This document shows, piece by piece, positions 32,637 through 57,391 of a stretch of 57,391 nt of DNA. The notes under the pieces are model-generated. The model saw nothing but the letters and a program-made list of their open reading frames with translations. It did not search any database and was not told where the DNA came from. This stretch comes from a virus (taxonomy: Duplodnaviria > Caudoviricetes). How positions within the stretch are numbered: position 1 is the first letter of the stretch; each line of letters starts with the position of its first letter. The stretch spans positions 1 to 57,391 of the IMG/VR virus record IMGVR_UViG_3300027708_000083. The stretch is one strand, 5' to 3'. The position numbers and the translations under genes were made by a program.

Positions 32637-32654
32637 GTAGGTATTTATAGCTAG

Positions 32655-34097: not shown

Positions 34098-34098
34098 G

Positions 34099-34371: not shown

Positions 34372-34384
34372 ACAGATATTTATG

Positions 34385-43616: not shown

Positions 43617-43617
43617 T

Positions 43618-43860
43618 ATGAACGAACAAATTAAAAAACTTTCTGTAGAAGCTGGATTAGATATTGCTACTAACAGCGTTGGTATGCCTATCATTGTTAC
43701 CACTAAAGATGGAAAACTAACAGATCCGAATGAAGCAATACAACGATTCGCTGAGTTATTGATTAATGATTGTACCGGAGCAATAGAGCAGTTTGCAATG
43801 ATGCAGGTTCCACCTGCAATGATTACAGGGTTAGTTAAAAAGAAGTATGGAGTAGTATAA
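43618..43860 (+). CDS. MNERI-family small phage protein
   Basis: MNEQIKKL..EAG...RFAELLINDC...YGV. Confidence 0.65.
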   Translation: MNEQIKKLSVEAGLDIATNSVGMPIIVTTKDGKLTDPNEAIQRFAELLINDCTGAIEQFAMMQVPPAMITGLVKKKYGVV

Positions 43861-44078
43861 TGGAACAGGTACGAGTTGGCATGTGGAAGTTACCTGGAAT
43901 TAAATTCCAGCCTAGTATATCAGATGAGGTAGTTGCTGAGATGGATAACTGGGCCAAAGAAAATCATTGTGGCATGTGCATGGGCCCTGGCTTCTGGTCA
44001 TTTAAAAATGAAGCCCAGCGTGATTGGTTTATCTTACGATGGAGTGATGAGTTTCCAAAAGAGAAACAAGATGACTAG
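43860..44078 (+). CDS. Hypothetical protein, F..E....F.L.W family
   Basis: WSFKNEAQRDWFILRW. Confidence 0.7.
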   Translation: MEQVRVGMWKLPGIKFQPSISDEVVAEMDNWAKENHCGMCMGPGFWSFKNEAQRDWFILRWSDEFPKEKQDD

Positions 44079-44379
44079 TCTAGTAGGAAGACAAATGGGC
44101 AAGAGTTATGTTAATAGCATAATGCAAGGATGGTATGCAAGTATGCGAGAAAAATACACACCTACAATTAAATGGCAACGTTTGCCCGGACTTAAACTGC
44201 AAGCCTATACAGATCAAGTAGGTCCACGTGGATTTGAACGTGGGCTTAATGAAACAGATATGGATCCTGTACAAGCATGGACTGATGAATGTCGTTGTGG
44301 TACACGTATGAGCTTTAATGTTTGGAAGTTTAAAAGTGAAAAGCAAATCACCATGTTCTTAATTAGGTGGGCATCATGA
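44071..44379 (+). CDS. Hypothetical protein, F..E....F.L.W family
   Basis: WKFKSEKQITMFLIRW. Confidence 0.65.
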   Translation: MTSLVGRQMGKSYVNSIMQGWYASMREKYTPTIKWQRLPGLKLQAYTDQVGPRGFERGLNETDMDPVQAWTDECRCGTRMSFNVWKFKSEKQITMFLIRWAS

Positions 44380-44756
44380 GACACCCTAACCTCAAACATA
44401 GAGACAACGCTGGAGACTTGGAGTATTTTATTTCCAAGTTCGAATGCCGTGTGGAAGACAGTCGCGAGTACAATCAATATGTGAGACCAGCACCTTACTA
44501 TCGTGATGTTTGCTCCAGTGACGATTGGCGAATGGAAACCAAGATTACTCCCATGAAAGCCATACATTTGACTTCGGACAACTTGGCAAGGCTTGTGGCA
44601 GAACAGGAACACATACAACATCTCAGTGCCGATGCTGAGTATGGCAAGAAGTGCTGGGATCACGAACGCAGAGACCGCATAGTACGTGAATCAAATCCCG
44701 CAGTAGACAAAGCCTATCAAAAGTACGTGATGCTTTTGGAGTTGGCACGTAAATGA
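44376..44756 (+). CDS. Hypothetical protein
   Basis: C-terminal NPAV.KAY.KY..LLEL. Confidence 0.65.
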   Translation: MRHPNLKHRDNAGDLEYFISKFECRVEDSREYNQYVRPAPYYRDVCSSDDWRMETKITPMKAIHLTSDNLARLVAEQEHIQHLSADAEYGKKCWDHERRDRIVRESNPAVDKAYQKYVMLLELARK

Positions 44757-45073
44757 ATTACAGTCCGGAGGTAATGGCCAATATGGGTAAATGGGTAGAA
44801 AGTCAAACTTATATATTAGAAAAAGAAATGATAGAAGCCAAGGCTAAAGAAATGTCAGATGAGATTGACAGAGAAGTGCTTTGGGGAATGTTACAAGGCA
44901 TAGGATGGACCCGTGTTATGTTGCCTCGATTGATAGATAATCATCATGCTATCGATATCTCCTATTGGCTAGAGGAGAACTGTAAAAAAACCTACGAACG
45001 CAATGGCCGTGACTTTTTATTTGAGTGCGCCAAAGATTCCAATTGGTTTCGACTACGCTGGGGAACTGTATGA
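44753..45073 (+). CDS. Hypothetical protein, F..E....F.L.W family
   Basis: FLFECAKDSNWFRLRW. Confidence 0.65.
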   Translation: MNYSPEVMANMGKWVESQTYILEKEMIEAKAKEMSDEIDREVLWGMLQGIGWTRVMLPRLIDNHHAIDISYWLEENCKKTYERNGRDFLFECAKDSNWFRLRWGTV

Positions 45074-45234
45074 CACATGAATACCATTGTGTGCATGTGG
45101 ACAAGGTTCCTACATACATACTAGCATGGATGGTAGAAACATTTGGGCCAGCAGGCACCCGCTGGTGGCATAACAATAACAAAATCTATTTCAGAGATGA
45201 ACGAGATTGGATTTGGTTTGAATTAAGGACATAA
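45070..45234 (+). CDS. Hypothetical protein, F..E....F.L.W family
   Basis: WMVETFGP..RW...YFRDERDWIWFELR. Confidence 0.65.
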   Translation: MTHEYHCVHVDKVPTYILAWMVETFGPAGTRWWHNNNKIYFRDERDWIWFELRT

Positions 45235-46040
45235 TGAAAAAAATACTATTACTATTATTATTTTGTACGTCAGCACACGCTCAGCAAGGTAGTTATGCGC
45301 TATACGATTATGATAATCTTGAGTATCAAGTATCGTATAATGCAACCGAAGTAAGACCTATTGCCAGTATTACCAAACTGTTTACAGCTATTACTGTATT
45401 GAGAAGTGGTGCTGATCTCACTGAAAAGGTACGAGTTAAAGGCAAGAGCAATGGTCGCTTCCCTAATGGCATGCTGGTTCCTAGGAACGATCTAATGAAG
45501 GCCATGCTGATATCTAGTGATAATCGTGCGGCTGAAACACTGGCCAACACATATCCCGGAGGGTTTGATGTGTTCATCCGAGATGCTAATGCTTATATAC
45601 GGGGGCGTGGTCTCATACAAACTTCAATAGAAGAACCTACAGGACTATCTCAAAACAATGTCAGCACAGCCGCAGAGCTGGTCAGTTTTCTTGGTTCTAT
45701 AAGAAATAATGAAGCTATTCGAAATTACGCAGATGATAAAACGGCAGAGATCCTAATACCAAAAGGTAAGAAGTTTATACACATTCGATTGCATAATACT
45801 AATCCCAGTATCTTTAAATTTGATAACATCCTGATCAGCAAGACCGGATTTACCAATCCAGCAGGTCGTTGTGTAATAATGCTAGTAGAGAAGGAGCATA
45901 GATACTATGCCATAGTTGTACTGGGACAACAGACTATTAAAACTCGAAGTGAGATTGCCAATGAGTTGATCACTGCTAGTCCATTGCCACCAAAGGCAAC
46001 AACCGTAGCCGATCCTATTGTATTCGAAAGTGCCATGTGA
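45234..46040 (+). CDS. Peptidase S11 D-Ala-D-Ala endo/carboxypeptidase (PBP7-like)
   Basis: Signal peptide, ASITK (SxxK), SDN (SxN) and KTGFT. Confidence 0.9.
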   Translation: MKKILLLLLFCTSAHAQQGSYALYDYDNLEYQVSYNATEVRPIASITKLFTAITVLRSGADLTEKVRVKGKSNGRFPNGMLVPRNDLMKAMLISSDNRAAETLANTYPGGFDVFIRDANAYIRGRGLIQTSIEEPTGLSQNNVSTAAELVSFLGSIRNNEAIRNYADDKTAEILIPKGKKFIHIRLHNTNPSIFKFDNILISKTGFTNPAGRCVIMLVEKEHRYYAIVVLGQQTIKTRSEIANELITASPLPPKATTVADPIVFESAM

Positions 46041-46456
46041 AAGATACTGTAGTACCACTACCTAACGGAGACTTTACCTCTACCCGTTGGCTCAAAGACC
46101 ATTATTATAATAAAGGATATATGGGTCAAACAAAAAGAGTTAAGCTAAACAAATTTATGTTGATAGAAGATCGAGTACACGAAGTGCATAGTGTTATAGT
46201 ATATAGATTCAAAATGGGTGATGTTGAAGATCCGGACCTTTATGCCGCGCAGCCACTTTGGGAATGGCAATCTAGTGAAATGGGCAAATGGGTGATGGAA
46301 CGTAGTGTAGAAACACCCGTGTGGCATAGACAAACTAGTCCACATCAATATCATACCGAATATGCTGTACAAGCCTGGCTCAAGGGAGTAGATTATTCAT
46401 TTTGGGTGCTAAAATGGGGTAATCAAGTTGACAAGGATACTGTTATTAGTGTATAA
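46037..46456 (+). CDS. Conserved phage hypothetical protein
   Basis: MGDVEDPDLYAAQPLWEW motif. Confidence 0.65.
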   Translation: MKDTVVPLPNGDFTSTRWLKDHYYNKGYMGQTKRVKLNKFMLIEDRVHEVHSVIVYRFKMGDVEDPDLYAAQPLWEWQSSEMGKWVMERSVETPVWHRQTSPHQYHTEYAVQAWLKGVDYSFWVLKWGNQVDKDTVISV

Positions 46457-46489
46457 TATGTTATGTTCAACTAGTTTGGAAAGCGTATT

Positions 46490-46819
46490 ATGCAGGCAGT
46501 CATTGAAACCACAGGTGGATTATTTCCCGCCCACACATATCTTTTGGACAGCAACAATCTAGTTGCCTATATCAAACGAGGCGAAACTGTTCCTTTTTAC
46601 TTTAAACAGCCAATCAAAGGTTTTGACCGGCGCGGTAGAACTTTTGAAAAGACAGATGACAGTTTGTTTACACAGACTCAACAACCCGCAGGTACTATCG
46701 AAGTCAAGGGTAGTAAAGGTGAAACATATACAGTTGACACAGAATCTCAAACTTGTACCTGCCCTGGATACACATTCCGTGGTGCTTGCAAACATGTAAA
46801 AGAATTGGTCTCTGCATAG
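46490..46819 (+). CDS. SWIM zinc-finger protein
   Basis: GSKG..Y.V...CTCPG..FR..CKH; TTGACA-N18-TATAAT upstream (46428-46457). Confidence 0.8.
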   Translation: MQAVIETTGGLFPAHTYLLDSNNLVAYIKRGETVPFYFKQPIKGFDRRGRTFEKTDDSLFTQTQQPAGTIEVKGSKGETYTVDTESQTCTCPGYTFRGACKHVKELVSA

Positions 46820-46835
46820 AGCGTTAAATACTGTT

Positions 46836-47750
46836 ATGCATACAGACTCATTAGAAACGTTAATAACTAACGAAAAATATCAACAAAAGTTTGGGGCACA
46901 TAGCCAAGTGCCTCCTATTGACGAAAGAATGACCTACAATGGATTGATCTCTCGTCAGCTGACTAGAAAAACTTGTAGACATTTCAAACCTGATCCGATT
47001 GATAATGCAACCATAGAACTAATGGTAGCTGGATCTCAGTGTAGCCCAACCAGTGGTATGCTACAGACCTATAGTGTATTGGCATTGACGACCAAGGAAG
47101 AAAAAGACAAGCTGTTTGCACACGATTGGAATAGAGGTATTATAGGCGGTGTTGATAGCCACAATCTACGAGTTTACTATGAATGTCCAGTATTTTTAAT
47201 TTGGATAGCTGATTTGCACAGAACTGAAGTGTTGCTGACAGAAGCTCTAGACAACGAACTGCATGATACCAATTGCATTGATTTTTTGTCCTCTGCTGAA
47301 ATTAATCTTAAATCAGTTATTGATACGGCTATTGTGGCACAGAGTTTCTGTATGATTGCTGAAAGCTACGGATATGGTACTATGTATTGTGGGGCTATTA
47401 GACAAATTAATCCTAGACATTTTCAAGAGCAGTATGGTATGCCGCACTATTGCGTGCCTTTGTTTGGTATGGCTTTGGGAATACCGGATACGATAAATGG
47501 TGCCGGGGCGATCACTAAACCTAGAATGCCTACTGCAAACATTCTCCATTTTGGAAGTTACAATCCTATTACTGGCAAGGCCGATTTAGGTGGATATAAT
47601 GAATGGCATTCCGATGGCATTAAACAAGGTGCTTATAAGAGTGGCGATCATCTTACATTTGTTCAAAGGTTAGTTGAACGATTTCATATCAGTCCCGCAA
47701 AGACTTTGATAGGTGATTTTTTTAAGAAAATGGGTTTTGAATTCAAATAA
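46836..47750 (+). CDS. Nitroreductase/flavin reductase (NfsA-like)
   Basis: RKTCRHF, SPTSGMLQ.YS, D.AI.AQ...AES.GYG..Y.GAIR and KPRMP. Confidence 0.85.
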   Translation: MHTDSLETLITNEKYQQKFGAHSQVPPIDERMTYNGLISRQLTRKTCRHFKPDPIDNATIELMVAGSQCSPTSGMLQTYSVLALTTKEEKDKLFAHDWNRGIIGGVDSHNLRVYYECPVFLIWIADLHRTEVLLTEALDNELHDTNCIDFLSSAEINLKSVIDTAIVAQSFCMIAESYGYGTMYCGAIRQINPRHFQEQYGMPHYCVPLFGMALGIPDTINGAGAITKPRMPTANILHFGSYNPITGKADLGGYNEWHSDGIKQGAYKSGDHLTFVQRLVERFHISPAKTLIGDFFKKMGFEFK

Positions 47751-47761
47751 AGGAAAGAAAA

Positions 47762-47995
47762 ATGCAAGTTAGAGTAAAAGAAAACGCAGAAGAATTTGGT
47801 AAATGTGGTTGTGGCCGCAGTCCAACAGGCAAATGTATTGGCTGGCACGGACTCACAGAAGAAATGTATCAGCATCAAAAAATGCTGTGGTTGGAAGAAG
47901 AAATGAAAAAAGATCACGAGCTTGAAGAATACAAACGTCAAGCACAAGAAACTTGGAGTGACAGTTGTACCACACCCCGAAAGGAACAAGAATGA
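47762..47995 (+). CDS. CDGSH-type (NEET-like) 2Fe-2S binding protein
   Basis: CGCGRS....CIGWH (CxC-x-C-x3-H). Confidence 0.65.
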
Positions 47996-48291
47996 ATTGG
48001 TTAAAATTAAAATTACGTAACTGGGTAATGAGTGCCCAAGACGAACCCGAACAGATCTATTCAAATTCTAAAGTGAGCCACGGCATGAATACGGTTAGTA
48101 CACGTGATGTTGGTAGTGATCCTACGCTACAGTTCAAAGTGTACAATGCCATTGGTGGCAAGGTAGTAGAGTTTAGCCGATACGACCGCATGAAAGATCG
48201 ACACTTCCACGATATCTACATTATTGGCAAAAATGAAGACTTTGGTCAGAAGATTGCCAAAATTGCCATGCTTGAAGTGTTGAAAGATTGA
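47992..48291 (+). CDS. Hypothetical protein
   Basis: F.VY.A.GG.VVE motif. Confidence 0.65.
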   Translation: MNWLKLKLRNWVMSAQDEPEQIYSNSKVSHGMNTVSTRDVGSDPTLQFKVYNAIGGKVVEFSRYDRMKDRHFHDIYIIGKNEDFGQKIAKIAMLEVLKD

Positions 48292-48319
48292 TTAAATAAC
48301 TTACCTAGAGAGAACTCAA

Positions 48320-48670
48320 ATGGAATATATTTCTTACCTTGCAGTTGCCGTTGTGGCTTTTTGGATTGGCGGGCACTGGAAGGCCTACCAGATCATGCAA
48401 AACTTGATCAGTCGCCCAGACGACATGATTAAACTGATTACCAAACTAAAAGAGCTGAATGATGAAGTCGAAGCTGACAATACCCTGCCCGATGATGCTG
48501 TAGAATTGACTTTGGAAAACGTAGGCGATCAAGTCTATGCCTACAACAAGTCCACAGGGCAGTTTTTGGCTCAAGCTGGCAGTGTTTATCAAGTGGCTAT
48601 CCTAGCGGCTAAACAATGCGGCAAGACCGTTTGGCATCCTGATCTCAAGCAAGACAGCCAAACAGCTTGA
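48320..48670 (+). CDS. Membrane-anchored hypothetical protein
   Basis: N-terminal TM helix and YAY...GQFLAQ. Confidence 0.65.
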   Translation: MEYISYLAVAVVAFWIGGHWKAYQIMQNLISRPDDMIKLITKLKELNDEVEADNTLPDDAVELTLENVGDQVYAYNKSTGQFLAQAGSVYQVAILAAKQCGKTVWHPDLKQDSQTA

Positions 48671-48739
48671 GTTTGTCAGGGCATTTTGCTATACTAGATA
48701 TAGCTGTTTAATTACAGCATAATCTAAAGGAAACACAAA

Positions 48740-49012
48740 ATGAAATTCATTTCAAAAGAAACTAAGACCTACAAGTTGTTCAATGCCCTGTACAATGGCG
48801 AAAAGGTAACTGGTGCCCAAGCTGAAAAGCGTTTTGGTATCAAGAACATTGCTGCCGAAGCTTCACGTATTCGTCAATCAGGCTATGCTGTCTACAGCAA
48901 GAGCCGTGTTGCTGGTAACGGTGTTACAGTCACTGAATACGAAATGGGCAATGCCAGCCGCGAAATCATCGCACTGGGCTACAAGGCCAAAGCAATGGGT
49001 ATCACTCTTTAA
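48740..49012 (+). CDS. Winged-HTH-like DNA-binding protein
   Basis: L..G..VT..QA..RFG.......SRIR..GY; TTGAGT-N17-TATACT promoter and AAAGGA RBS. Confidence 0.65.
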   Translation: MKFISKETKTYKLFNALYNGEKVTGAQAEKRFGIKNIAAEASRIRQSGYAVYSKSRVAGNGVTVTEYEMGNASREIIALGYKAKAMGITL

Positions 49013-49033
49013 TTAGAGCTTGCCCAAACAATC

Positions 49034-49055
49034 AAGGCTGGTAACAGCCTTTTTT
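49034..49055 (+). terminator. Rho-independent terminator
   Basis: AAGGCTG-GTAA-CAGCCTT followed by a T-run. Confidence 0.8.
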
Positions 49056-49087
49056 GTTGACTTGATGTTAGCAGGACTAATTATAGT

Positions 49088-49384
49088 ATGAATATTAAAC
49101 AACTAGCACAGCCCACTATAGATTGGATACACGATGATTACAAGAGTGATAGAATACGTTTTTGTCTTGAGGTCCTTGCTTGGGCTATATCTATTGGTTG
49201 TGCTATCACTATGGCAACCACCGTACCAAACCCCCCATTACTTGTTCTCTATCCCATATGGATTTGTGGATGTGCTATATATGCTTGGTGTTCTTTTAGT
49301 CGGCGTTCCTTTGGCATGTTGGCTAATTACATACTTTTGGTCAGCATCGACTCAGTCGGCCTGATTAGAATGTTACTGAACTAA
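49088..49384 (+). CDS. Small multi-pass membrane protein
   Basis: About three hydrophobic segments. Confidence 0.7.
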   Translation: MNIKQLAQPTIDWIHDDYKSDRIRFCLEVLAWAISIGCAITMATTVPNPPLLVLYPIWICGCAIYAWCSFSRRSFGMLANYILLVSIDSVGLIRMLLN

Positions 49385-49937
49385 CAGGCGGTAGGCTAGG
49401 GGCCTGATCCCAGGGTACACAGGCCCAGGGCAGTATGCGTATGCTGATCAATTGTGCTGGCTCAGAGCTGGCATTACATAGGCTATGCCATGTATTGATA
49501 TCAGCTACAAAGGGCTGATCACACAGTCTACTTTCTACAACTTCAGCGGCATCAACGGGTAGCATGGGCACAGTATTGTACTGGCCTTGAGCATCCTGTT
49601 GGAACGTCTTAGATTCATCAGTACACCTATACCACGACCACGTTAGATGCTCACAGTTCTTAATGGGTATGATCAAGCTACGATGTACATCACCACTAAA
49701 CGGACTACGATCTGAATGTATCTCTATGGGGTCCTTGCTAGGGAACCAGGCTTGAAGTACATTATAGTTACGGGTCACTGCCCAATCTGTGCCTAGACGT
49801 TCCAATATAGCTCGTTGGCTGTGAGGAGGTATACGTCCCACATACCCTCTACGTGCTTGTGGGGGTTCTACTTGATCGGCCAACCACAGGCTCAGCTGGC
49901 TAATGTTGGCTAGAGTTACAGGGTATGAGTGCTTCAT
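49365..49937 (-). CDS. Cupin/2OG-Fe(II) oxygenase-like protein
   Basis: IHSD...IIP...WHSL.N...ISIR. Confidence 0.6.
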   Translation of the reverse strand: MKHSYPVTLANISQLSLWLADQVEPPQARRGYVGRIPPHSQRAILERLGTDWAVTRNYNVLQAWFPSKDPIEIHSDRSPFSGDVHRSLIIPIKNCEHLTWSWYRCTDESKTFQQDAQGQYNTVPMLPVDAAEVVESRLCDQPFVADINTWHSLCNASSEPAQLISIRILPWACVPWDQAPSLPPVSSVTF

Positions 49938-49938
49938 G

Positions 49939-50529
49939 TTAATCCGCTAGGTATGCTATTAGGTGTAGTTGTGGCTCTGTGTCGTCATTGACCATCTTGT
50001 GATCTACCCTAGTGCTGAATTGGTACACACTGCCGTCGGCTGGCCAATAAGCCAAGGATCGATCAGGCCCAAACATACGACTCCGTGGTGGGGCATATAT
50101 GGGTATGTGGACTCGCACACGTCCCGTGACGTCCGAACGACCCCAAAAGGTTTCTACCCCCGCGGGTAGCCAGCTTAACTGTACCCGACCCAGGCCCCGG
50201 GGGCTTTGTGCCACGAGATCCTGTGCCACACTCTTGAGATAAGTACCCTCGGCTTCTTCTAGAAACTCAGTATAATGATGCTCGGCATAGCCCCTGTGCA
50301 GGTATATCCAATCCATACTGGCATTGAGTCCCCATACTCGTTTTTCGGGATCAACTGCCCGAGGGTGAGTTAAATTGATTCCCGATAAATTATAAGAGTC
50401 TCTGTAGACCCGGGGCACACGTTCTGTTTGCACATCTATCCATCGGGTGCCCAAGCGTTCTAACAGTAGTTCAACAGAAGCTTGAAGCTGGGCAGGGTCA
50501 TAAGTTTTAGATTGAATAGTGTACCACAT
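49939..50529 (-). CDS. AspH-like oxygenase-fold protein with degenerate HxD
   Basis: GRV.L..L...RVHIPI...PADGSVY...T...H..VN; RSD in place of HxD. Confidence 0.6.
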   Translation of the reverse strand: MWYTIQSKTYDPAQLQASVELLLERLGTRWIDVQTERVPRVYRDSYNLSGINLTHPRAVDPEKRVWGLNASMDWIYLHRGYAEHHYTEFLEEAEGTYLKSVAQDLVAQSPRGLGRVQLSWLPAGVETFWGRSDVTGRVRVHIPIYAPPRSRMFGPDRSLAYWPADGSVYQFSTRVDHKMVNDDTEPQLHLIAYLAD

Positions 50530-50589
50530 AAGTAGAAATATTTATTCACATTCTTGACCCCAGGTGATATTTCGTGTATAATTATATGC

Positions 50590-50814
50590 ATGACAGAAGA
50601 AGAAAAAGACGCTCGTTTAGAGCAATTAGTTGAAGCTATAGATCAAGTGATCAGCCAATACCCGGACTTTGAACCCCACAATATCGCAGGTGTACTCTTG
50701 AGCCGTATTACCTTGCTAATGAGCTCGGATACTGAAACGGGCAAGGCCTTGCTAAAGTTCGTTTGGGAAAAGCTGGACGAACTAGAACAATCAAACCCAA
50801 ATCAATACCTATGA
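50590..50814 (+). CDS. Hypothetical protein
   Basis: TTGACC-N17-TATAAT (50554-50582) directly before the start. Confidence 0.65.
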   Translation: MTEEEKDARLEQLVEAIDQVISQYPDFEPHNIAGVLLSRITLLMSSDTETGKALLKFVWEKLDELEQSNPNQYL

Positions 50815-51014
50815 CAGAAGAACAACAACTGATTGACACCTTGGCCCGAGAATATCGTGGCGGCAACGGTGATGTATACACCAATCTAAAGACCTGGTTT
50901 CCCGACAGTGAAAACGACCCTTGGATTGAATATCAACACAAGGCTACAGGACAGAAGTATTCTTGTAGATTGGCGGCATTTCTAACCCGTTTCACGCCCC
51001 ACGTTAATTCTTAA
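50811..51014 (+). CDS. Hypothetical protein
   Basis: ATGA overlap; WIEY......YSC...AF..RF. Confidence 0.6.
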   Translation: MTEEQQLIDTLAREYRGGNGDVYTNLKTWFPDSENDPWIEYQHKATGQKYSCRLAAFLTRFTPHVNS

Positions 51015-51137
51015 TCCGCGAAGCGGTAGCGGCAAAAATTTTTAGCTAGAGTGTAGACCCGACTCAAATCACGCCATTCGCAAGCCCGAACCCAGTTCAG
51101 ACTTGACTCTGGGGGTCTAATCGTGTATAATACCTGT

Positions 51138-51371
51138 ATGTACATGAAACTCGTCGTCGCCATAATACTGGCCAATTTATCGGGCTGTGCTATAGTATAT
51201 ACGGGCGCATCAACAGCCACCCTTGTGACCACAGGTAAGAGCATACCCGAACACGCTGCCAGCGGTGTCACAGGCAGTGACTGCAACGTGGTCAACTATG
51301 TGTTCAGGGATCGGGACTATCTGTGCGAACAACGCGACATAGCTAAAACCTACAATCGCAACCCGTTTTAG
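51138..51371 (+). CDS. Small lipoprotein
   Basis: LSGC lipobox; TTGACT-N17-TATAAT at 51103-51131. Confidence 0.7.
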   Translation: MYMKLVVAIILANLSGCAIVYTGASTATLVTTGKSIPEHAASGVTGSDCNVVNYVFRDRDYLCEQRDIAKTYNRNPF

Positions 51372-51401
51372 TGTAAATACTCACACAACAAAGGAATAGA
51401 T

Positions 51402-51659
51402 ATGCCACAAGGTTACGCAATCATAGCAACATCAGAAACAAATCTACGTCAAAAGAAGGTTGATTTGAACGACTCAACTCCCATTACAGACAGCCAATAT
51501 GCACAACAGCTAGCTGAATCATATGCCGCAGAGCTTAATCGTCTGGGCATGGCCAACTGCACTAACTGGGTAGGTTCAATCGAATGGACAGAAACCGGTA
51601 TTGCGACACTGGGTGGATTCCAAGGTTTTGCTGATCCGGGTTCAGGAAGCCAACACTAG
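51402..51659 (+). CDS. Hypothetical protein
   Basis: TAAATA plus AAAGGA RBS. Confidence 0.65.
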   Translation: MPQGYAIIATSETNLRQKKVDLNDSTPITDSQYAQQLAESYAAELNRLGMANCTNWVGSIEWTETGIATLGGFQGFADPGSGSQH

Positions 51660-51660
51660 T

Positions 51661-51996
51661 ATGTATCAGAGCAACCCAATGGATCCTTTAAACTCCGTAA
51701 AGTACTGGTGGTATTGGGAAGCCAGCAGAGCTCAAAAACTCATGCTGACGGGGTTGGCTATATTAACTTTGGTGTTGTGTGCTCGCATGGTAACATATAT
51801 GCCCGCTCTACCTGAAAGCCGTAAACCCAGATTGGATATGAACTTGTACGAACCAATCACTCATGAAGTAGACACAACTCCGCTACCCGTTGTTGAAACT
51901 CCACCTAAGTACTATAGATACGTAGAACATCAACAACCCGTGCGTCGCCTACAGCTTAAACAGATCAAGCATAAAAAGCCCAAGGATACTAAGTGA
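51661..51996 (+). CDS. Membrane-anchored hypothetical protein
   Basis: One TM helix and a basic tail. Confidence 0.55.
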   Translation: MYQSNPMDPLNSVKYWWYWEASRAQKLMLTGLAILTLVLCARMVTYMPALPESRKPRLDMNLYEPITHEVDTTPLPVVETPPKYYRYVEHQQPVRRLQLKQIKHKKPKDTK

Positions 51997-52148
51997 TGAC
52001 TATACTAGCAGTGTTAGAATGCATGGGTGTGATGACTATAACCGTACTGGCAGTTATAGCTGTTCAGTTGACCTTTAGATCAATGACCTTGGATAGATGG
52101 ATGCTGGCTTCAGCTATCGTACTGGCTGTGGGTTTTCTACTGTTATAA
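51996..52148 (+). CDS. 50-aa two-TM membrane protein (not in ORF track)
   Basis: TGATG overlap; MTILAVLECMGVMTITVLAVIAVQLTFRSMTLDRWMLASAIVLAVGFLLL. Confidence 0.45.
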   Translation: MTILAVLECMGVMTITVLAVIAVQLTFRSMTLDRWMLASAIVLAVGFLLL

Positions 52149-52352
52149 CACTAAGACCTGTAGTGAGTCCGAGTACTCTAGTAAGATAAAGTCTATGCGA
52201 CTGTTAGCATCACACTCTATACTCCATGGACACGAACTAACTGAAGAGTCAAATTGCCCTATTCGATAGGTGCAGATATCAAACTGACGACAACGACTTA
52301 TGATCTCGTCTACTAGACTGCTGTCACCTTGGACTATGAGTTGTACTCGCAT
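52143..52352 (-). CDS. Hypothetical protein
   Basis: TAAATA 5 nt before ATG. Confidence 0.55.
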   Translation of the reverse strand: MRVQLIVQGDSSLVDEIISRCRQFDICTYRIGQFDSSVSSCPWSIECDANSRIDFILLEYSDSLQVLVL

Positions 52353-52382
52353 GCTAGTATTTACTCGCTACTAGCTGTTACA

Positions 52383-52622
52383 TAGGCCCCGCTGTACATA
52401 TAAGTGCATGTGTATAGACTGCATTGGTTTGTCCTGTATAGGAACCTTACTAGCTATGAACGCACTTCGTGCTATGCCGGAACTACTGTATAACACATAG
52501 TATAGAGTCTATCGGACTACAGTGCAACAAGAATGGTTACACGCACTGACACGCTCAAACTACGCTAGGCCCCGCTGTGGGGTCACGTATACACACTATG
52601 CATATAGGATAGGCCCCGCTGT
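52383..52622 (+). repeat. Three exact copies of TAGGCCCCGCTGT
   Basis: Copies at 52383-52395, 52566-52578 and 52610-52622. Confidence 0.9.
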
Positions 52623-52760
52623 AGAGAGTGGGCATTGTGGGAGATTTGGCAGAGTTTGAGTAACCATTTAAACTATGCCTGTCTAGACCTCGAGCCTCTC
52701 AAATGGTTACTACCGTAGAGCCAGAGTGTCAACCAAGATAGTGGCTCTTTATCACATTTC

Positions 52761-52804
52761 TGCCACACTTTATTGCACTTTTTCACACTTTTCTTCACTT
52801 TTTT
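52761..52804 (+). repeat. CACTT(T) repeated four times with exact 10-bp period
   Basis: tgccacactt tattgcactt tttcacactt ttcttcactt tttt. Confidence 0.75.
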
Positions 52805-53006
52805 AGGTTGACACCTTGCTTAGATTGGTCTGTACGCTAGGGGCCATGATCTAGATCACACTTAGTCACACCTAATCCTATTCTAGATCACAATGTATCA
52901 TATACTATACACTCTAGCTCTACTCAACTGTACGGTCCTTAACTAGTCTAACCACTAGTATATAGGATCGAACCGATAAGTATTATATAGGTGATGGGAG
53001 ACCACT

Positions 53007-53213
53007 ATGCAAGCTAGTAAGAGTTTTATACAGTTCGCTACACATGCTGTACACATAACAGTAACTGAAGATAGTCATATACGTGTATTCAAGCACTCAG
53101 ATCGTTGTTGTGACTTTGGTGTGTTTACTGATCAGGATGAAGCCTGTGACTATATATTAGAACTCATGCCCACTACACACTTTCGAGTAACGTTTCCCGA
53201 GGATGATGAGTAA
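53007..53213 (+). CDS. Hypothetical protein
   Basis: GGGAG RBS and TAAGTA upstream. Confidence 0.6.
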   Translation: MQASKSFIQFATHAVHITVTEDSHIRVFKHSDRCCDFGVFTDQDEACDYILELMPTTHFRVTFPEDDE

Positions 53214-53247
53214 TTAATAGAAGTTTAAGGGCCGGAAGAGTCCTGCC

Positions 53248-53273
53248 AAAACCTGCTTTAATCAGCAGGTTTT
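53248..53273. terminator. Bidirectional terminator
   Basis: AAAACCTGC-N8-GCAGGTTTT. Confidence 0.75.
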
Positions 53274-53464
53274 ATTTTGGCTTTTATACTAGCGATCCAA
53301 AAGTCAAATCAAAACCTATTAACCCTAGTGTCAACCAGGTTGTTGCGTTTATGCCACAGTTGGTTGGCGCTAACTAACTTAAGAAATGCCGCCCACCCTC
53401 CACGTCCACCCCCAGTATAGCTGTTCGAACCTATTCGGTCTACCCGTTTTCTTATTATGTTATA

Positions 53465-53493
53465 ATTATAGCTGATTTTGGGCGGGGCGTCAA
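53465..53493 (-). promoter_or_regulatory. Leftward sigma70 promoter with no downstream ORF
   Basis: TTGACG-N17-TATAAT on the minus strand. Confidence 0.7.
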
Positions 53494-53528
53494 CTCCTTT
53501 CTTTTTGTGTGTGTTCTTCTAGCCACAG

Positions 53529-53557
53529 TTGACACGCTGGGCGGGGTCTGCTATAAT
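53529..53557 (+). promoter_or_regulatory. Sigma70 promoter with extended -10
   Basis: TTGACA-N17-TATAAT with TGn; ATG 6 nt later, so probably leaderless. Confidence 0.85.
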
Positions 53558-53563
53558 ACTCAT

Positions 53564-53884
53564 ATGAAGACAAAAAGAACTGCTCGCAAAGACTCTAATT
53601 TCGTTATCTATTGTGCATTCCACAATGGGCTAGCCTATATTGGACTCACCCGCAAGGGGTCTACTACAGTCTCTAAGGCTGTAAAAGAACGCTGGCGTAA
53701 GCATATCAGTCGCGCCCGACACGAAGACAGGGACTGGGAGCTGTATCGCTATATTAAGAAGGGCCATTGGGACGGATGGACCCACACTGTCTTAGATGTC
53801 ATACGCGGGCGGGCTGAAGCTTATGCATACGAGCGTGAGCTGGTCAAGCAGATCCAACCCGAACTGAATGATCAGTACAGATAA
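53564..53884 (+). CDS. GIY-YIG nuclease-like protein
   Basis: VIY...YIGLT...RW..H...E...LN. Confidence 0.75.
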   Translation: MKTKRTARKDSNFVIYCAFHNGLAYIGLTRKGSTTVSKAVKERWRKHISRARHEDRDWELYRYIKKGHWDGWTHTVLDVIRGRAEAYAYERELVKQIQPELNDQYR

Positions 53885-53892
53885 CCCTGGGG

Positions 53893-53921
53893 TTGACTGG
53901 TGTATTGAATCCTGCTATAAT
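53893..53921 (+). promoter_or_regulatory. Sigma70 promoter
   Basis: TTGACT-N17-TATAAT with TGn. Confidence 0.85.
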
Positions 53922-53951
53922 TAAGGCTAAGTTAAACAAAGGAGCGAAACT

Positions 53952-54653
53952 ATGTTCAAGCTATTAAGTACTGCAAACCCTAAGATCCAAAAGGGCACCA
54001 AGATGGGCTATTTGAGCTTCATCCTGCACCTTGCACCTGCTGACTTGTCAGGCAAAGAAACATGCCCCAAGCGCACCGCAGGCTGTACTAGTGCATGCCT
54101 TAACACCGCAGGACGTGGTGGCATGTTCAAGCGCGGTGAAAACACTAACATGATCCAAAAGGCACGTATCCGCAAGACCCAGTACTTCTTCAACAATCGT
54201 GCAGAGTTTATGGTAGATCTAGCCAACGACATCAAGAAGGCTATACGTTTCGCAGAGCGCAAGGGCTTGACTCCTGTGTTCCGCTTAAACGGTACGAGCG
54301 ATTTGAGCTGGGAGAAGTACGATGTCATCGAAGGGTTCAACATCTTTGAAATGTTCCCTACTGTACAGTTCTATGACTACACTAAGGTCTTGGGACGTAA
54401 GGTTGCGCACCTGCAGAACTATCACCTTACATTCTCTAAGGCAGACGGCAATGACGCTGATGTCGCAGAAGCATTAATGCAGGGCATGAGTGTAGTGGCT
54501 GTCTACGACAAGATCCCAGAGGGTGTTCCGAGTGCAGACGAAACTGATCTGCGCTTCCTAGACCCAAAAGGCACTATGCTAGGGCTCAAGGCCAAGGGTC
54601 GTGCTAAGAAGGACTATTCAGGCTTCGTAATCCGCTTGACAGAACAGGCTTAA
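53952..54653 (+). CDS. Gp88-like (radical-SAM-related) phage protein
   Basis: CP....C...CL..AGRG, RLNGTSD, QFYDYTK, NYHLTFS and DLRFLD. Confidence 0.75.
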   Translation: MFKLLSTANPKIQKGTKMGYLSFILHLAPADLSGKETCPKRTAGCTSACLNTAGRGGMFKRGENTNMIQKARIRKTQYFFNNRAEFMVDLANDIKKAIRFAERKGLTPVFRLNGTSDLSWEKYDVIEGFNIFEMFPTVQFYDYTKVLGRKVAHLQNYHLTFSKADGNDADVAEALMQGMSVVAVYDKIPEGVPSADETDLRFLDPKGTMLGLKAKGRAKKDYSGFVIRLTEQA

Positions 54654-54664
54654 GGCCTTATAAT
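54636..54664 (+). promoter_or_regulatory. Sigma70 promoter overlapping the upstream CDS end
   Basis: TTGACA-N17-TATAAT. Confidence 0.85.
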
Positions 54665-54696
54665 ACTAACATACAGACACAAAAGGAGCGAAACTT

Positions 54697-54972
54697 ATGA
54701 TGTTTACACTAGAGATATACAAGAAGGATCGCCGCAAGAAAGAGGGCGAACGACTGATTGGCAAGTACGACTATGATCGCCCAGATCGTGAGGCCATGTT
54801 GCGTGAGAGCAATGAGCTCTATGATGCTTACCCACCACGCCTAGGCTATAGGTTTGCTATACATGAAACCTATGTAAAGAAGACCAACTTGATGGGTGGT
54901 GCAGAGTTCCTGGAGCGGTACGATACGCCCTACTTCTGCTCACCAGCATCCGAATCCTACTGGAGCATGTAG
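54697..54972 (+). CDS. Conserved phage early protein
   Basis: C-terminal NLMGG...E..DTP..CSPASESYWSM; AGGAGCGAAA RBS. Confidence 0.75.
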   Translation: MMFTLEIYKKDRRKKEGERLIGKYDYDRPDREAMLRESNELYDAYPPRLGYRFAIHETYVKKTNLMGGAEFLERYDTPYFCSPASESYWSM

Positions 54973-54973
54973 G

Positions 54974-55029
54974 TTGACTGGGTGCCCAAAAGGCAGTATA
55001 ATAAACACTTAAACACACACAGGAGCGAA
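54974..55029 (+). promoter_or_regulatory. Sigma70 promoter plus leader cassette
   Basis: TTGACT-N17-TATAAT; 54997-55029 is identical to 55276-55308. Confidence 0.85.
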
Positions 55030-55032
55030 ACT

Positions 55033-55272
55033 ATGCGTACAATTACCACCCTGCGTAACGGCAACATCTATCAGATGGACATACAAGAAGCCATTGACAT
55101 TGTGCAGGCCTATGCTCGTCAGAACACGGGCGGGGATCTGTTGCAAGCGGCCACTGAGATGACGGACTTGGCCACACTGGACGAGTTGCCGACTATACAA
55201 AAGATTGCCATCCGACGCTTCATGCGAGACATGGGTCGTTTGCTTGCACCGGTTGACGTTGAAACAGTTTGA
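55033..55272 (+). CDS. Hypothetical early protein
   Basis: Start at MRTITT behind AGGAG. Confidence 0.7.
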   Translation: MRTITTLRNGNIYQMDIQEAIDIVQAYARQNTGGDLLQAATEMTDLATLDELPTIQKIAIRRFMRDMGRLLAPVDVETV

Positions 55273-55308
55273 GCATATAATAAACACTTAAACACACACA
55301 GGAGCGAA
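55253..55308 (+). promoter_or_regulatory. Sigma70 promoter plus leader cassette
   Basis: TTGACG-N17-TATAAT with the duplicated 33-nt leader. Confidence 0.85.
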
Positions 55309-55309
55309 C

Positions 55310-55600
55310 ATGCTAACGATTCAAGAAGTTAACCGGGCTATCATGCTACAAGAGTGGACCAACACTGAGTTGAGTTCTATGATTGATGCAGTCAAGTGGA
55401 ACAAAGAGCAATTGGCCAAGCGCATCAAGTACTCAATCCGCACAGGCGACAATGTTGAGTTCACTAGTTCGAAGACAGGGCGAGTGACCAGAGGCTTTGT
55501 AACCAAAGTGGCTATCAAGTATGTCACAGTGAATACAGGCATGGGCCTGTGGAGAGTTCCGGCTAATATGCTTACAGTGGTTGACAAAGAGTTGGCCTGA
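55310..55600 (+). CDS. Hypothetical early protein (SH3/KOW-like C-half)
   Basis: GDNVEF...G.V.K...K...V.....WRVPA.ML. Confidence 0.7.
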   Translation: MLTIQEVNRAIMLQEWTNTELSSMIDAVKWNKEQLAKRIKYSIRTGDNVEFTSSKTGRVTRGFVTKVAIKYVTVNTGMGLWRVPANMLTVVDKELA

Positions 55601-55609
55601 GAGTATAAT
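55581..55609 (+). promoter_or_regulatory. Sigma70 promoter
   Basis: TTGACA-N17-TATAAT. Confidence 0.85.
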
Positions 55610-55636
55610 TAACACTTAGCAACAAAGGAAGCAAAG

Positions 55637-55723
55637 ATGGAATGTACTATATGTAGGAAGTGGCACTGGAAGGGTTTCGAGGTTTGCTTGCAGAACAAGG
55701 GACCAATTCCACACAAAGGATAG
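55637..55723 (+). CDS. 28-aa Cys/His micro-protein (not in ORF track)
   Basis: MECTICRKWHWKGFEVCLQNKGPIPHKG, with its own promoter and AAAGGA RBS. Confidence 0.5.
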   Translation: MECTICRKWHWKGFEVCLQNKGPIPHKG

Positions 55724-55728
55724 GGTTG

Positions 55729-55757
55729 TTGACAAGGACTAGTTCATGTGCTATAAT
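55729..55757 (+). promoter_or_regulatory. Sigma70 promoter with the -10 box inside a perfect inverted repeat
   Basis: TTGACA-N17-TATAAT with TGn; GTTCATGTGCT/AGCACATGAAC. Confidence 0.85.
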
Positions 55758-55763
55758 AAGCAC

Positions 55764-56210
55764 ATGAACAGTTAGAAAAGAGTTAAAGGTTACCTACACC
55801 GTTAGGCGCCCAGGTAGAGGACAGTATCGACGGATACGCTTGAGACTGGGGCATGAAACAAGCACCTAAGACGTGTTGGAGATGCGGCGGATCATGTAGG
55901 CAGTAATGATGAAGGCAGACGATCTAGCAGACGGTGCTAGCGGCTAGTCCGGACTTCCTTTAGTCTTTTTCTAACTGACGTTTATGTCCCGGGAATCCAC
56001 GCTGAGTTCGCAACTCAGGGCAGTGAGTAGGTGAAACTCCTATAGGGACGCCATTTAAGGCATTCATGCGAAAGCTGATGTAAGGCCAATCTAACATCGC
56101 TGAGGGACAAGTGCGTTCCTGTAGGGCTAGCCATAGGTTAGCGATTAACAAGAGTCCCTACGAAACCTGCTAGTCGACCCGGGTGAGACTTCCCAAAACC
56201 CTCCCGGAAC
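55764..56210 (+). ncRNA. Candidate large structured non-coding RNA (two domains or two RNAs), family unassigned
   Basis: Consensus promoter, no plus-strand ORF, a 21-bp long-range helix with G-U pairs, many nested hairpins, GNRA and T-loop-like loops. Confidence 0.7.
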
Positions 56211-56242
56211 TTCTTGATAAAGACCCTACTGCTTGTAGGGAC

Positions 56243-56271
56243 TTGACAGTTTGCCCAAAATACGCTATAAT
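56243..56271 (+). promoter_or_regulatory. Sigma70 promoter
   Basis: TTGACA-N17-TATAAT, preceded by a CCCTAC/GTAGGG hairpin. Confidence 0.85.
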
Positions 56272-56301
56272 TAACACATACACAAACACACAGGAGCGTA
56301 T

Positions 56302-56565
56302 ATGTTAACACAATGCATAGCAAAAGCAAAATTAGTTTATAACAAAAAATTGCAATCTTATAAACTAGTTGTCGCATTTAACACACACAAAACAATTAAA
56401 AAAATAGGTAATACAGAAGTTGTAAAATACAACTTCCCTACACAAGCAAAATGCGCTTATGTTAGCGGGGACTTACTTGCAAATAATTTGCAAAACGAGC
56501 TTGCAAATGTAATGCCAAATGTTTACAAAGCAATACGCACAAACACAGTAGAGTTTGTGGACTAA
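56302..56565 (+). CDS. Hypothetical early protein
   Basis: ACACACAGGAGCG leader. Confidence 0.7.
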   Translation: MLTQCIAKAKLVYNKKLQSYKLVVAFNTHKTIKKIGNTEVVKYNFPTQAKCAYVSGDLLANNLQNELANVMPNVYKAIRTNTVEFVD

Positions 56566-56591
56566 AAACAACACTACTGCGCACAGGGTTA

Positions 56592-56620
56592 TTGACAGTG
56601 TGCGCAGTATATGCTATAAT
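56592..56620 (+). promoter_or_regulatory. Sigma70 promoter with the -35 box enclosed by an 11-bp inverted repeat
   Basis: TTGACA-N17-TATAAT; TACTGCGCACA (56575-85) and TGTGCGCAGTA (56599-609). Confidence 0.85.
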
Positions 56621-56651
56621 TAATTTTTAACAAGCACTAGGAGCGAAAACT

Positions 56652-57038
56652 ATGCAAACATTTACTACACTACACACAAACGGATGCGGCTATTGGAGTA
56701 ACACTGCTACAGCAGTAGCAATTACAAAATTGGACTTGCAGTACTGTACAGCAGAGAGAGATTTTGGAGAGCTGTGTGTGTACTTTAACACAAACGATTG
56801 GGACGTTAATACTAACGGACTTATATACACAGACAAATTGTTTATGCAGGAGTTGCGTACATACTTGCAAACTATTGGCTTTACGGAAGCGGAAGCTAAC
56901 GACGTAAGCTACAGCGAACAGGGTATGCAAAGCAATGTATATGTTAGCTGTGACGTGGGAGCTGTGTTTATTGCAGGACTTATGCGCTTAGACAGTGCGC
57001 ATGTTAACGCTGTAGTAGCAGAGTGCGCAGATGTTTAA
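56652..57038 (+). CDS. Conserved phage early protein
   Basis: T.G.GYWS...GEL.VYF...W....GLIYTD..F...YSEQGMQ...VS.D; AGGAGCGAAAA RBS. Confidence 0.75.
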   Translation: MQTFTTLHTNGCGYWSNTATAVAITKLDLQYCTAERDFGELCVYFNTNDWDVNTNGLIYTDKLFMQELRTYLQTIGFTEAEANDVSYSEQGMQSNVYVSCDVGAVFIAGLMRLDSAHVNAVVAECADV

Positions 57039-57255
57039 CAACATAGTGCAGTGGGCCGGAACGGCCTGCTTTCTCTGCATGTACACTATAATGTCGTTCT
57101 TCCCACAGCACAACAGCTACAGCATATTGGCTGGGTTTTGTGGGGGAACGCTGTACATGATATGGAGTTTACGTGTACGCAACTGGCCGCAGACACTAAC
57201 TAACGTTGTGTCAATATCCATATGCGCTATAGGGTTATACAAAGCGTTTAGTTGA
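57031..57255 (+). CDS. Small three-TM membrane protein
   Basis: Hydrophobic segments. Confidence 0.65.
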   Translation: MFNNIVQWAGTACFLCMYTIMSFFPQHNSYSILAGFCGGTLYMIWSLRVRNWPQTLTNVVSISICAIGLYKAFS

Positions 57256-57280
57256 CGTTTTGGCTAAAATGTGCTATAAT
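57252..57280 (+). promoter_or_regulatory. Sigma70 promoter
   Basis: TTGACG-N17-TATAAT with TGn. Confidence 0.85.
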
Positions 57281-57300
57281 TAGTTTTTAAGGAGCACACA

Positions 57301-57391
57301 ATGCGTAAAGTTAAAGTTGTAAGCGTAGAGGACGGCGGCTACTATAGTAGCGCATATGCTAGCGGTAATACTGTAAACGTTACACTACAGC
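57301..57391 (+). CDS. Hypothetical protein, truncated by the window end
   Basis: AAGGAG RBS and an open frame starting MRKVKVVSVEDGG. Confidence 0.6.
   Translation, partial: MRKVKVVSVEDGGYYSSAYASGNTVNVTLQ

Follow-up and report, generated by a model that had tools for sequence, protein, structure and literature searches.

A stretch of viral DNA of 57,391 nucleotides (nt) (Duplodnaviria; Caudoviricetes; IMG/VR record IMGVR_UViG_3300027708_000083), referred to here as the window, carries at its right-hand end a group of small early genes from whose sense strand, that is, from whose mRNA, the dinucleotide 5'-YC-3' (TC or CC, Y being a pyrimidine) has been removed by purifying selection. The purge reaches into the encoded proteins, which are without proline and without TCN-encoded serine. 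Loss of TC, and of nearly all CC, from one strand of this region had been proposed in an original prediction made from the letters alone. That observation is confirmed here and is stronger than first stated.

Each TC and CC count of the original prediction was reproduced on recount. TC is absent from positions 56437-57071 (635 nt), where composition predicts 29.7 occurrences, close to the approximately 30 first estimated; three TC are found in 56221-57071 and none in 57220-57391. CC occurs once across 56440-57055 (19.6 expected). The longest TC-free gap of the 57391-nt record measures 637 nt, with a runner-up of 188 nt beyond this region, and the longest CC-free gap measures 541 nt against 196 nt elsewhere in the record. 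Since TC and CC are depleted alike, the missing unit is 5'-YC-3'; TC had been taken as central and CC as secondary, and the loss of both stands, but CC is purged equally. Counted as YC, the 800 nt of 56256-57055 contain 6 occurrences against 61.3 expected, the 540 nt of 56516-57055 contain none against 41.4, and the 173 nt of 57219-57391 contain none against 12.0. Outside the region YC-free gaps reach at most 88 nt, against 541 nt within it (Poisson estimate for the latter ~5e-24), and no other two-letter class tested gave a gap above 113 nt. The features of the region, with the ratio of observed to expected YC for genes and lengths in amino acids (aa) for open reading frames (ORFs), are as follows.

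56224..56240, plus strand: stem-loop CCCTAC-tgctt-GTAGGG, directly 5' of promoter P1, carrying CC steps before the tract
56243..56271, plus strand: promoter P1 (TTGACA, 17-nt spacer, TATAAT), with the final CC (56254-56255) in its spacer
56256..57055, plus strand: YC-poor tract, 6 YC in 800 nt, the last 540 nt (56516-57055) with none
56302..56565, plus strand: 87-aa ORF of family cluster 1, opening the tract; 6 YC, ratio 0.32, two prolines
56577..56607, plus strand: hairpin ctgcgcaca/tgtgcgcag with the -35 box of promoter P2 in its loop; YC-free because its stem is made of alternating purine-pyrimidine steps
56592..56620, plus strand: promoter P2 (TTGACA, 17-nt spacer, TATAAT), no YC
56652..57038, plus strand: ORF of 128 aa, family cluster 0; no YC, no proline
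57031..57255, plus strand: ORF of 74 aa, small membrane protein, its start overlapping the stop of the 128-aa gene; 13 YC, ratio 0.54
57219..57391, plus strand: second YC-free tract, none in 173 nt, continuing past the contig end
57252..57280, plus strand: promoter P3 of the zone type (TTGACG, 17-nt spacer TTTTGGCTAAAATGTGC, TATAAT), no YC
57301..57391, plus strand: opening 30 codons of a family cluster 3 ORF, truncated where the contig stops

Amino-acid composition is not the cause of the loss, because synonymous resampling of the ORF at 56652-57038 by genome codon usage gave 18.0 +/- 3.7 YC and none of 1000 resamples reached zero; the codon-shuffled control suggested with the original prediction thus fails to explain the depletion. 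The three intergenic pieces (161 nt) are also without YC, against 13.2 expected. GA, the complement of TC, had been said to stay common on the same strand; the odds of GA and GG are 0.89 and 0.76 in the pooled YC-free ORFs described below, and GR (R being a purine) is mildly low on the sense strand of 56256-57055, at 61 against 93.7 expected (ratio ~0.65; 0.91 genome-wide). The 74-aa membrane gene, which had been called ordinary in its TC content, is instead intermediate.

The pattern was followed into relatives with an anchor gene at 53952-54653 (Pfam GP88), which retrieved 56 related viral contigs, and with the 128-aa protein, which added 2 (58 loci, among which L009/L012, L011/L013, L015/L016 and L004/L008 are near-duplicates). 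Zones defined as YC-poor (at most 3 YC per 200 nt over at least 300 nt) lie on the plus strand in 34 of the 58 loci and on the minus strand in none, so that the depletion is far from absent in homologous regions. Many of these loci contain, on the same strand, YC-free runs of 400-1244 nt; the opposite strand has a single run of at least 150 nt, 178 nt in length. ORFs were called mechanically (longest non-overlapping, at least 45 aa; n=1997), and some will be spurious. Their YC ratios are bimodal, with a main mode near 0.9 and a second at 0-0.1. A ratio below 0.1 was found for 51 of 1345 plus-strand ORFs and for none of the 652 on the minus strand, none of which falls below 0.2 either. The 66 ORFs with a ratio below 0.2 form approximately 20 protein families (blastp E <= 1e-5, coverage at least 50%), including those of the three purged ORFs of the window. 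The strand-specific bias over both coding and non-coding sequence is therefore borne out, with zones on one strand only and YC-free spacers, and symmetry between the strands is ruled out. Avoidance of restriction sites, which needs such symmetry, was rejected on the same counts.

A profile search with the 128-aa protein gave 54 unique sequences from the best 80 of 338 relatives. By YC ratio, 7 of these are below 0.1 (four of them at zero), 31 between 0.1 and 0.35, 8 between 0.35 and 0.6, and 8 reach 0.6 or more. The median ratio is 0.245, with a GR median of 0.85 over the same stretches; many homologues carry 4-13 YC, and the longest YC-free run among their loci reaches 1445 nt. Cluster 1 homologues (n=18) range throughout from 0.00 to 0.58, and full-length homologues of cluster 3 (n=9) from 0.00 to 0.07, the one in L029 being identical to the window across the 30 aa. 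In BUDD, a cultured Xanthomonas phage, the 128-aa protein has a homologue with an ordinary ratio (0.98). Samples of BUDD and XacN1 (approximately 40 kb each), RAS14 (25 kb) and T4 (49 kb) contained no YC-poor tract, and no YC-free run of at least 150 nt was found in the last 20 kb of G003 or the first 20 kb of G002, two near-complete relatives. Given the BUDD ratio and the tract-free samples of BUDD, XacN1, RAS14 and T4, the trait belongs to one freshwater clade, and it is graded within that clade. Depletion varies by lineage and by family, the between-locus share of the variance being 0.46 (20 loci, 85 genes).

For the nucleotide pattern, the unique ORFs whose ratio falls below 0.1 (n=46; 12.3 kb) were pooled and compared with a background of 863 unique plus-strand ORFs of at most 600 nt and a ratio of at least 0.6. 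The odds of TC and of CC are each 0.02 in the pooled set, and all 14 YC-containing trinucleotides stand at 0.04-0.19 of background, the most depleted being TCA, CCA and ATC (0.04-0.07), with ATC, GTC, CTC and TTC together at 0.04-0.12. C itself is retained (17.5% against 20.3%) but shifted behind purines (AC 1.64, GC 1.71). G-rich trinucleotides are depleted, and ACA and CAC are enriched. Proline makes up 0.0% of residues against 3.5% in the background, and serine is encoded by 210 AGY and 2 TCN codons. TTC, CTC, ATC, GTC, ACC and GCC are almost unused; GAC, AAC, TAC and AGC are favoured, GAC far above GAT. Relative to background, YC stands at 0.015, 0.022 and 0.017 in codon phases 1-2, 2-3 and 3-1 respectively, and its density in spacers is 0.011 per nt inside zones against 0.066 outside. 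The equal purge of the three codon phases and of the spacers places the constraint on the nucleotide sequence itself instead of on codon or tRNA use.

These data bear directly on a constraint at the level of translation, either avoidance of codons read by particular tRNAs or removal of CUCC-like stretches that pair with AGGAG ribosome-binding sites. From base pairing, YC-free RNA would be unable to form strong anti-Shine-Dalgarno pairs, and codon use otherwise resembles that of well-expressed genes in its preference for GAC, AAC and TAC. However, the codon-boundary phase and the spacers are purged as strongly as the phases within codons, the usually favoured codons TTC and ATC are abandoned, and blocking anti-Shine-Dalgarno pairing requires the loss of a few tetramers rather than of every YC. 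Such a constraint is considered very unlikely.

That selection maintains the pattern follows from its persistence through divergence. Nine members of the 128-aa family have zero YC, in pairs with as little as 23-34% protein identity and with 50-60% nucleotide difference, although approximately 23% of all single substitutions and approximately 25% of synonymous ones create a YC. In 20 pairs of a YC-bearing member and its nearest YC-free homologue (at least 45% identity), the YC-free partner has T at 48 of 153 aligned YC positions, A at 43, G at 32 and C with a changed 5' base at 30. Selection has thus taken each escape open to it. The data contradict the targeted mutagenesis by a deaminase that had been offered as one cause: only 48 of the 153 replacements are T, T content is 23.0% against 25.1% in the background, and neither leucine nor phenylalanine is raised, so that the footprint of C>T deamination is missing. 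A role had also been suggested for the deaminase at 27948; its product is a fusion of a kinase with a dCMP-deaminase-type domain, and nothing ties this fusion to the pattern. Avoidance of ultraviolet (UV) lesions was likewise rejected, since the template strand keeps its YC, as the sense-strand values for GA and GG indicate. DarT-type targeting of TNTC or TCT does not account for a purge in which CC and every TC context are lost alike.

Pure mutational bias, whether C>T change at YC or UV photoproducts, and assembly artefact are thus scarcely credible as causes. TT is somewhat raised (odds 1.38 against 1.07), as such bias would have it, but serine has moved from TCN to AGY, which joins the low T content and the replacement data on the other side. 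The stretch is also present, whole or in portions, in 24 public runs from 16 studies, and the trait is present in tens of independent contigs. The general frame of the original prediction, selection on the transcript or on the non-template strand, is supported.

The assignment to early genes also holds, with sigma70-type promoters preceding small plus-strand genes. An early region takes up the rightmost 16 kb of the window, and in it TTGACN, a 16-18-nt spacer and TAYAAT stand before nearly every such gene; there are 14 of these consensus promoters on the plus strand of the window (41500-57391) and up to 24 in each 13-20 kb locus of the relatives. Upstream of the zones, the sequence stays rich in YC until the -35 box of the first promoter is reached. 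The zone promoters (n=34) share a consensus free of YC, atagcgcac-TTGACAttttgggctaa-gtgcgcTATAAT, whereas ordinary early promoters (n=400) have a mean of 1.66 YC in the spacer. In this consensus a hairpin surrounds the -35 box (atagcgcac-TTGACA..-gtgcgcTAT), as at P2, and all three promoters of the window's tracts (56243, 56592 and 57252) have a stem-loop just upstream or enclosing the -35 box. The CCCTA..TAGGG hairpin found before P1 also precedes promoters in relatives. At the other end, YC persists in every one of the 28 homologues of the 74-aa membrane gene (ratio 0.34-0.95), 11 of which abut the 128-aa gene at its end or overlap with it there. Since this gene adjoins the 128-aa gene and keeps its YC, the purge halts inside one translationally coupled unit.

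This architecture resembles the PeSL-ORFan cassettes of T4-type phages, in which a strong sigma70-like promoter and a stem-loop precede small ORFans (Arbiol et al., 2010). There the stem-loop may enclose the -35 or the -10 box, and the early region is plastic and shuffled by recombination (PMC2839356, in part). Here, too, small ORFans follow a sigma70-like promoter that a stem-loop adjoins or overlaps. Two differences were noted: the part of that paper available mentions no compositional purge, and PeSL stems there are G- and C-tracts, those of the present zones being of a GCGC type that avoids YC (PMC2839356). The position of the zone relative to the anchor gene varies, being upstream in some contigs and downstream in others. 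Joined or loose contig ends coincide with promoters, for example at 57252, 56651 and 54972; such differing metagenome joins are as expected for PeSL-mediated shuffling. The tract is best explained as belonging to a mobile class of immediate-early cassettes, each consisting of a stem-loop-set sigma70-type promoter, a strong Shine-Dalgarno sequence and a small acidic ORFan.

The proteins of these cassettes are strongly acidic, with a median net charge of -12.9 per 100 aa (83% negative) against 0.0 for 851 other small early ORFs. Twenty cluster representatives matched no named family in PHROGs or Pfam-A, giving just weak matches to families of unknown function, and the 128-aa protein and the other early ORFs of the window likewise matched no named family in PHROGs or Pfam. 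The 128-aa protein has conserved GYWS, GELxVYF, GLIYTD and YSEQGMQ motifs; its AlphaFold model (pLDDT 83) gave no Foldseek match in the PDB at E <= 0.001. The 74-aa membrane protein is found clade-wide, often coupled to the 128-aa gene, and contains two P-Q motifs (FFPQ and NWPQ); its best Pfam match is weak (Tmemb_14, E 0.008).

The preferred account of what reads YC, put forward tentatively, is that early transcripts made by host RNA polymerase present no ligand to the YC-binding primary site of the termination factor Rho. To our knowledge, Rho is the one well-documented bacterial factor with exactly this specificity. The clefts of its primary site bind 5'-YC (PMC12360218, in part). The features that best describe Rho-dependent terminators include %YC and the distances between YC dimers, and G-rich motifs oppose Rho termination (PMC6144790, in part). 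Rho also silences foreign and prophage genes (PMC12360218, in part), and purified Rho limits early transcription of T4 to immediate-early RNA in vitro (PMC2988021, in part). Each subunit of the primary site takes one 5'-YC, and a YC-free transcript would give Rho no loading site, so that host RNA polymerase could complete these initial messages despite loose coupling between their synthesis and translation. Such protection in cis would precede any phage-made protection, and the YC-bearing membrane gene at the 3' end would mark where it ceases to matter.

Several observations accord with Rho as the selecting agent. The purged unit is exactly YC, and YC dimers are absent over 540 nt of the window and over runs of up to 1445 nt in relatives. 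The sense strand of early genes is solely affected, regardless of frame, and the tracts begin at consensus sigma70 promoters. The graded depletion among the 54 homologues fits a density-dependent reader, and the YC retained by the membrane gene argues against a hazard at the level of DNA. It may be speculated that freshwater hosts, with slow growth and few ribosomes, leave transcription uncoupled from translation more often, which would sharpen the threat from Rho.

Other observations weigh against Rho. It needs several YC, whereas a complete absence of YC for over 1 kb, at the expense of proline, resembles a cost paid per site. Apart from YC, the zones show no design against Rho: although the mean of C-G is -0.069 in zones against -0.038 in flanks, C still exceeds G in 17% of 78-nt zone windows (41% in the window's own tract). 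G-rich motifs, which oppose Rho termination, are depleted, with ACA and CAC enriched. The cassettes are short, each with its own promoter and stem-loop, which leaves Rho little room, and comparable stem-loops terminate well in phage RB49 (PMC2839356, in part). The sampled parts of T4, BUDD, XacN1 and RAS14 are free of tracts, yet these phages also face Rho. Finally, the first gene of a tract is usually just partly purged.

A possible, somewhat less probable alternative is that the transcripts evade an endoribonuclease or RNA modifier specific for YC, belonging either to a host defence or to the phage's own shutoff or early-mRNA turnover; the YC-free cassettes would then encode proteins needed while the enzyme is active. 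The features of strand, frame and spacers suit such an enzyme as they do Rho, and exact zeros of up to 1445 nt together with proline loss suit a cost per site. Restriction to one clade, the differences among lineages (0.46) and the BUDD ratio of 0.98 are explained more naturally by a clade-specific enzyme. The YC that remain form 130 runs in 22 unique zones (20.6 kb): 84 coding, 41 intergenic and 5 between the Shine-Dalgarno sequence and ATG, some of them the 5' arms of CCCTA..TAGGG hairpins. Among 142 residual YC, whose homologous sites are non-independent, T or TG follows more often and A less often than in the background. TG follows 20% of them against 8%, and YCA is purged hardest; the scarcity of YCA and the over-representation of YCTG give a hint of a reader with an extended preference. 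The small, very acidic character of the proteins also accords with this alternative, many anti-defence proteins being small and acidic. Against it, no candidate gene was identified, homologues with 4-13 YC show that single sites are tolerated, and we know of no YC-specific enzyme among the MazF, RelE, HEPN or RegB types or other bacterial or phage enzymes. With about the same reserve, the cassettes could be regarded as the imprint of an undescribed enzyme cutting or modifying single-stranded RNA at YC, either a defence of freshwater bacteria or a shut-off weapon of the phage. The small acidic ORFans would then be counter-measures whose translation has to proceed during its activity, and composition alone would mark them in the phage genome as a first-line anti-defence set.

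The purged strand is also the non-template strand, and the single-stranded DNA of heavily transcribed early units might be shielded from attack at dC by a DenB-like nuclease, an APOBEC- or DddA-like deaminase or a DarT-like transferase. T4 endonuclease IV (DenB) cleaves single-stranded DNA at dC, preferring dTdCdA (PMC2095790 and PMC1635256, each in part), and TCA, CCA and ATC are the most depleted words here. However, the coupled membrane gene keeps YC in all 28 homologues, although DNA damage there would be equally harmful, and the remaining genome, which is single-stranded in replication, is unpurged (whole-window TC odds 0.84). The C>T signature of a deaminase is lacking, the TNTC motif of DarT leaves CC and other TC contexts unexplained, and no DenB homologue was found in 5 records by a search that had no positive control. 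An origin of this kind is judged unlikely.

Since a YC-free sense strand is a GR-free template, it may also be asked whether the template avoids 5'-GR-3' on account of a phage modification of G or C that host RNA polymerase reads poorly. 7-Deazaguanine occurs at GA or GGC in some phages. However, none of 5 records, which include two at 94-96% completeness, gave a match to the TGT/DpdA family, the control being positive in 14 of 14 genomes. ThyA-family hydroxymethylases, C5 methylases and N4/N6 methylases were also found in 0 of 5 each with positive controls (10 of 14 for the ThyA family). Other early genes behind the same promoter type keep template GR, which leaves this modification highly improbable. 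The probability that remains is left for causes outside the readings considered.

Avoidance of short words by viruses is already known, including that of restriction sites in phages, of CpG in response to ZAP and of UpA in response to RNase L, together with the TC footprints of APOBEC3. The likeness is that a short word is selected out because a host factor reads it; here, unlike those cases, the loss affects one strand and few early cassettes, is near-absolute and reshapes amino-acid use. An APOBEC footprint is moreover a mutational C>T change, which the replacement data contradict. CmdTAC ADP-ribosylates GA in mRNA, and mRNAs without ACA resist MazF. In both, a word of two or three letters in mRNA is the target of an effector and a word-free mRNA is immune, as may apply here, where no YC effector was identified. 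DenB is alike in being dC-specific and in preferring TC(A), so far as its partial accounts go, TCA being among the most depleted words here. It acts on DNA, however, T4 escapes it by hydroxymethyl-C, and neither DenB (in the uncontrolled search) nor a ThyA-family hydroxymethylase was found in relatives. The rut sites and the escapes of phages from Rho (lambda N/Q, P4 Psu) share with the present case the dinucleotide bound by the primary site of Rho and early phage RNAs made by host polymerase. Those escapes rely on trans-acting proteins or on RNA elements that alter polymerase or inhibit Rho, whereas here the escape would lie in the composition of the transcript itself. A search for the Psu family gave no match, but its control was also silent, making it uninformative. 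No report of YC-free phage genes or tracts was found in a search of the full-text literature, supplements being outside its scope. As far as found, there is no precedent for a dinucleotide purge that is confined to one strand and to particular cassettes, is nearly absolute and alters the composition of the proteins.

The window is an entire assembly, rated approximately 16% complete, and is a fragment of an XacN1-like jumbo phage of approximately 350 kb; two relatives, measuring 356 kb and 345 kb, have completeness ratings of 96% and 94%, respectively. By protein search, the nearest cultured phages are the Xanthomonas and Stenotrophomonas jumbo phages XacN1, Xoo-sp13, CM1 and RAS14, and the nearest cultured matches of the 128-aa protein are in the Xanthomonas phages BUDD and X1. 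DNA searches of a phage collection with the tract and with a 20-kb stretch gave no match, and joining 57391 to 1 formed no sensible gene across a circular junction. The public runs that contain the stretch are lake and freshwater metagenomes, 7 of them containing at least half of its words. Three coded runs among metatranscriptome contigs overlap parts of 56291-57391, some crossing promoters P2 and P3, and no differences inside the tract were present among the RNA-run rows listed. These contigs, which give no strand, ends or level and may derive from DNA carry-over, are at most a hint of expression and read-through. Bacteroidetes were considered as host and rejected: the sole match in a genome collection is a 4.7-kb contig of a metagenome-assembled genome labelled uncultured Bacteroidetes (L065), probably a binned phage fragment, which was not used. 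This contig carries a 77%-identical copy of the phage D-Ala-D-Ala carboxypeptidase gene.

Two further stretches border the tract on its left. At 56150-56230 (plus strand), directly before the first stem-loop and promoter, the sequence is C-rich and G-poor (C 27, G 15), with 18 YC in 81 nt, and comparable C-rich flanks precede the zones in L013 and L042; this segment could be a candidate Rho loading site insulating the tract from upstream transcription. At 55729-56240 (plus strand), a consensus early promoter at 55729 is followed by approximately 480 YC-rich nt without a convincing ORF. The stretch is 73-92% conserved in L003, L029, L032, L001 and L005, has no Rfam match and contains a hairpin with compensatory changes (GTATC..GATAC, GTACC..GGTAC, GTAGC..GCTAC); the corresponding region of L003 has an insertion whose terminus resembles the T-arm and acceptor 3' end of a tRNA. 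The 55729-56240 stretch is probably a structured early RNA that has yet to be named. Over 52000-57391 Rfam gave nothing above noise, and ARAGORN detected no tRNA anywhere in the window.

Elsewhere in the window, 22306-38028 (mostly minus strand) encodes a 2OG-Fe(II) oxygenase, a class I/II aminotransferase, a radical SAM protein, a HAD/PNK-phosphatase, two NAD epimerase/dehydratases, a PfkB kinase, a cupin and the P-loop kinase/dCMP-deaminase-type fusion (27948-29207). The set looks like a sugar or nucleotide-sugar pathway; thymidine hypermodification by it is unsupported, as no ThyA-family hydroxymethylase was found in relatives. Genes for Fe-S cluster assembly (IscA-like Fe-S_biosyn and IscU/NifU_N) and an Hc1 histone-H1-like protein lie at 1534-2785 (minus strand). 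A 641-aa protein with Mtd_N (major tropism determinant N-terminal) and pectate-lyase-like domains is encoded at 8735-10660 (minus strand) and is likely a receptor-binding fibre.

Selection that strips one strand of a dinucleotide for more than 1 kb is rare in any genome, and here it abolishes proline and persists through protein divergence to approximately 25% identity. Long one-strand YC-free runs behind sigma70 promoters also provide a rule by which metagenomes can be searched. If Rho is the true reader, these would be natural Rho-proof messages, a cis-encoded anti-termination based on composition, and would give a direct in vivo readout of the primary-site requirement, which has so far been hard to define. 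If the reader is other than Rho, the pattern would be a signpost to an RNA-targeting activity not yet described. Either way, it marks approximately 20 ORFan families as the most urgently expressed genes of the phage.

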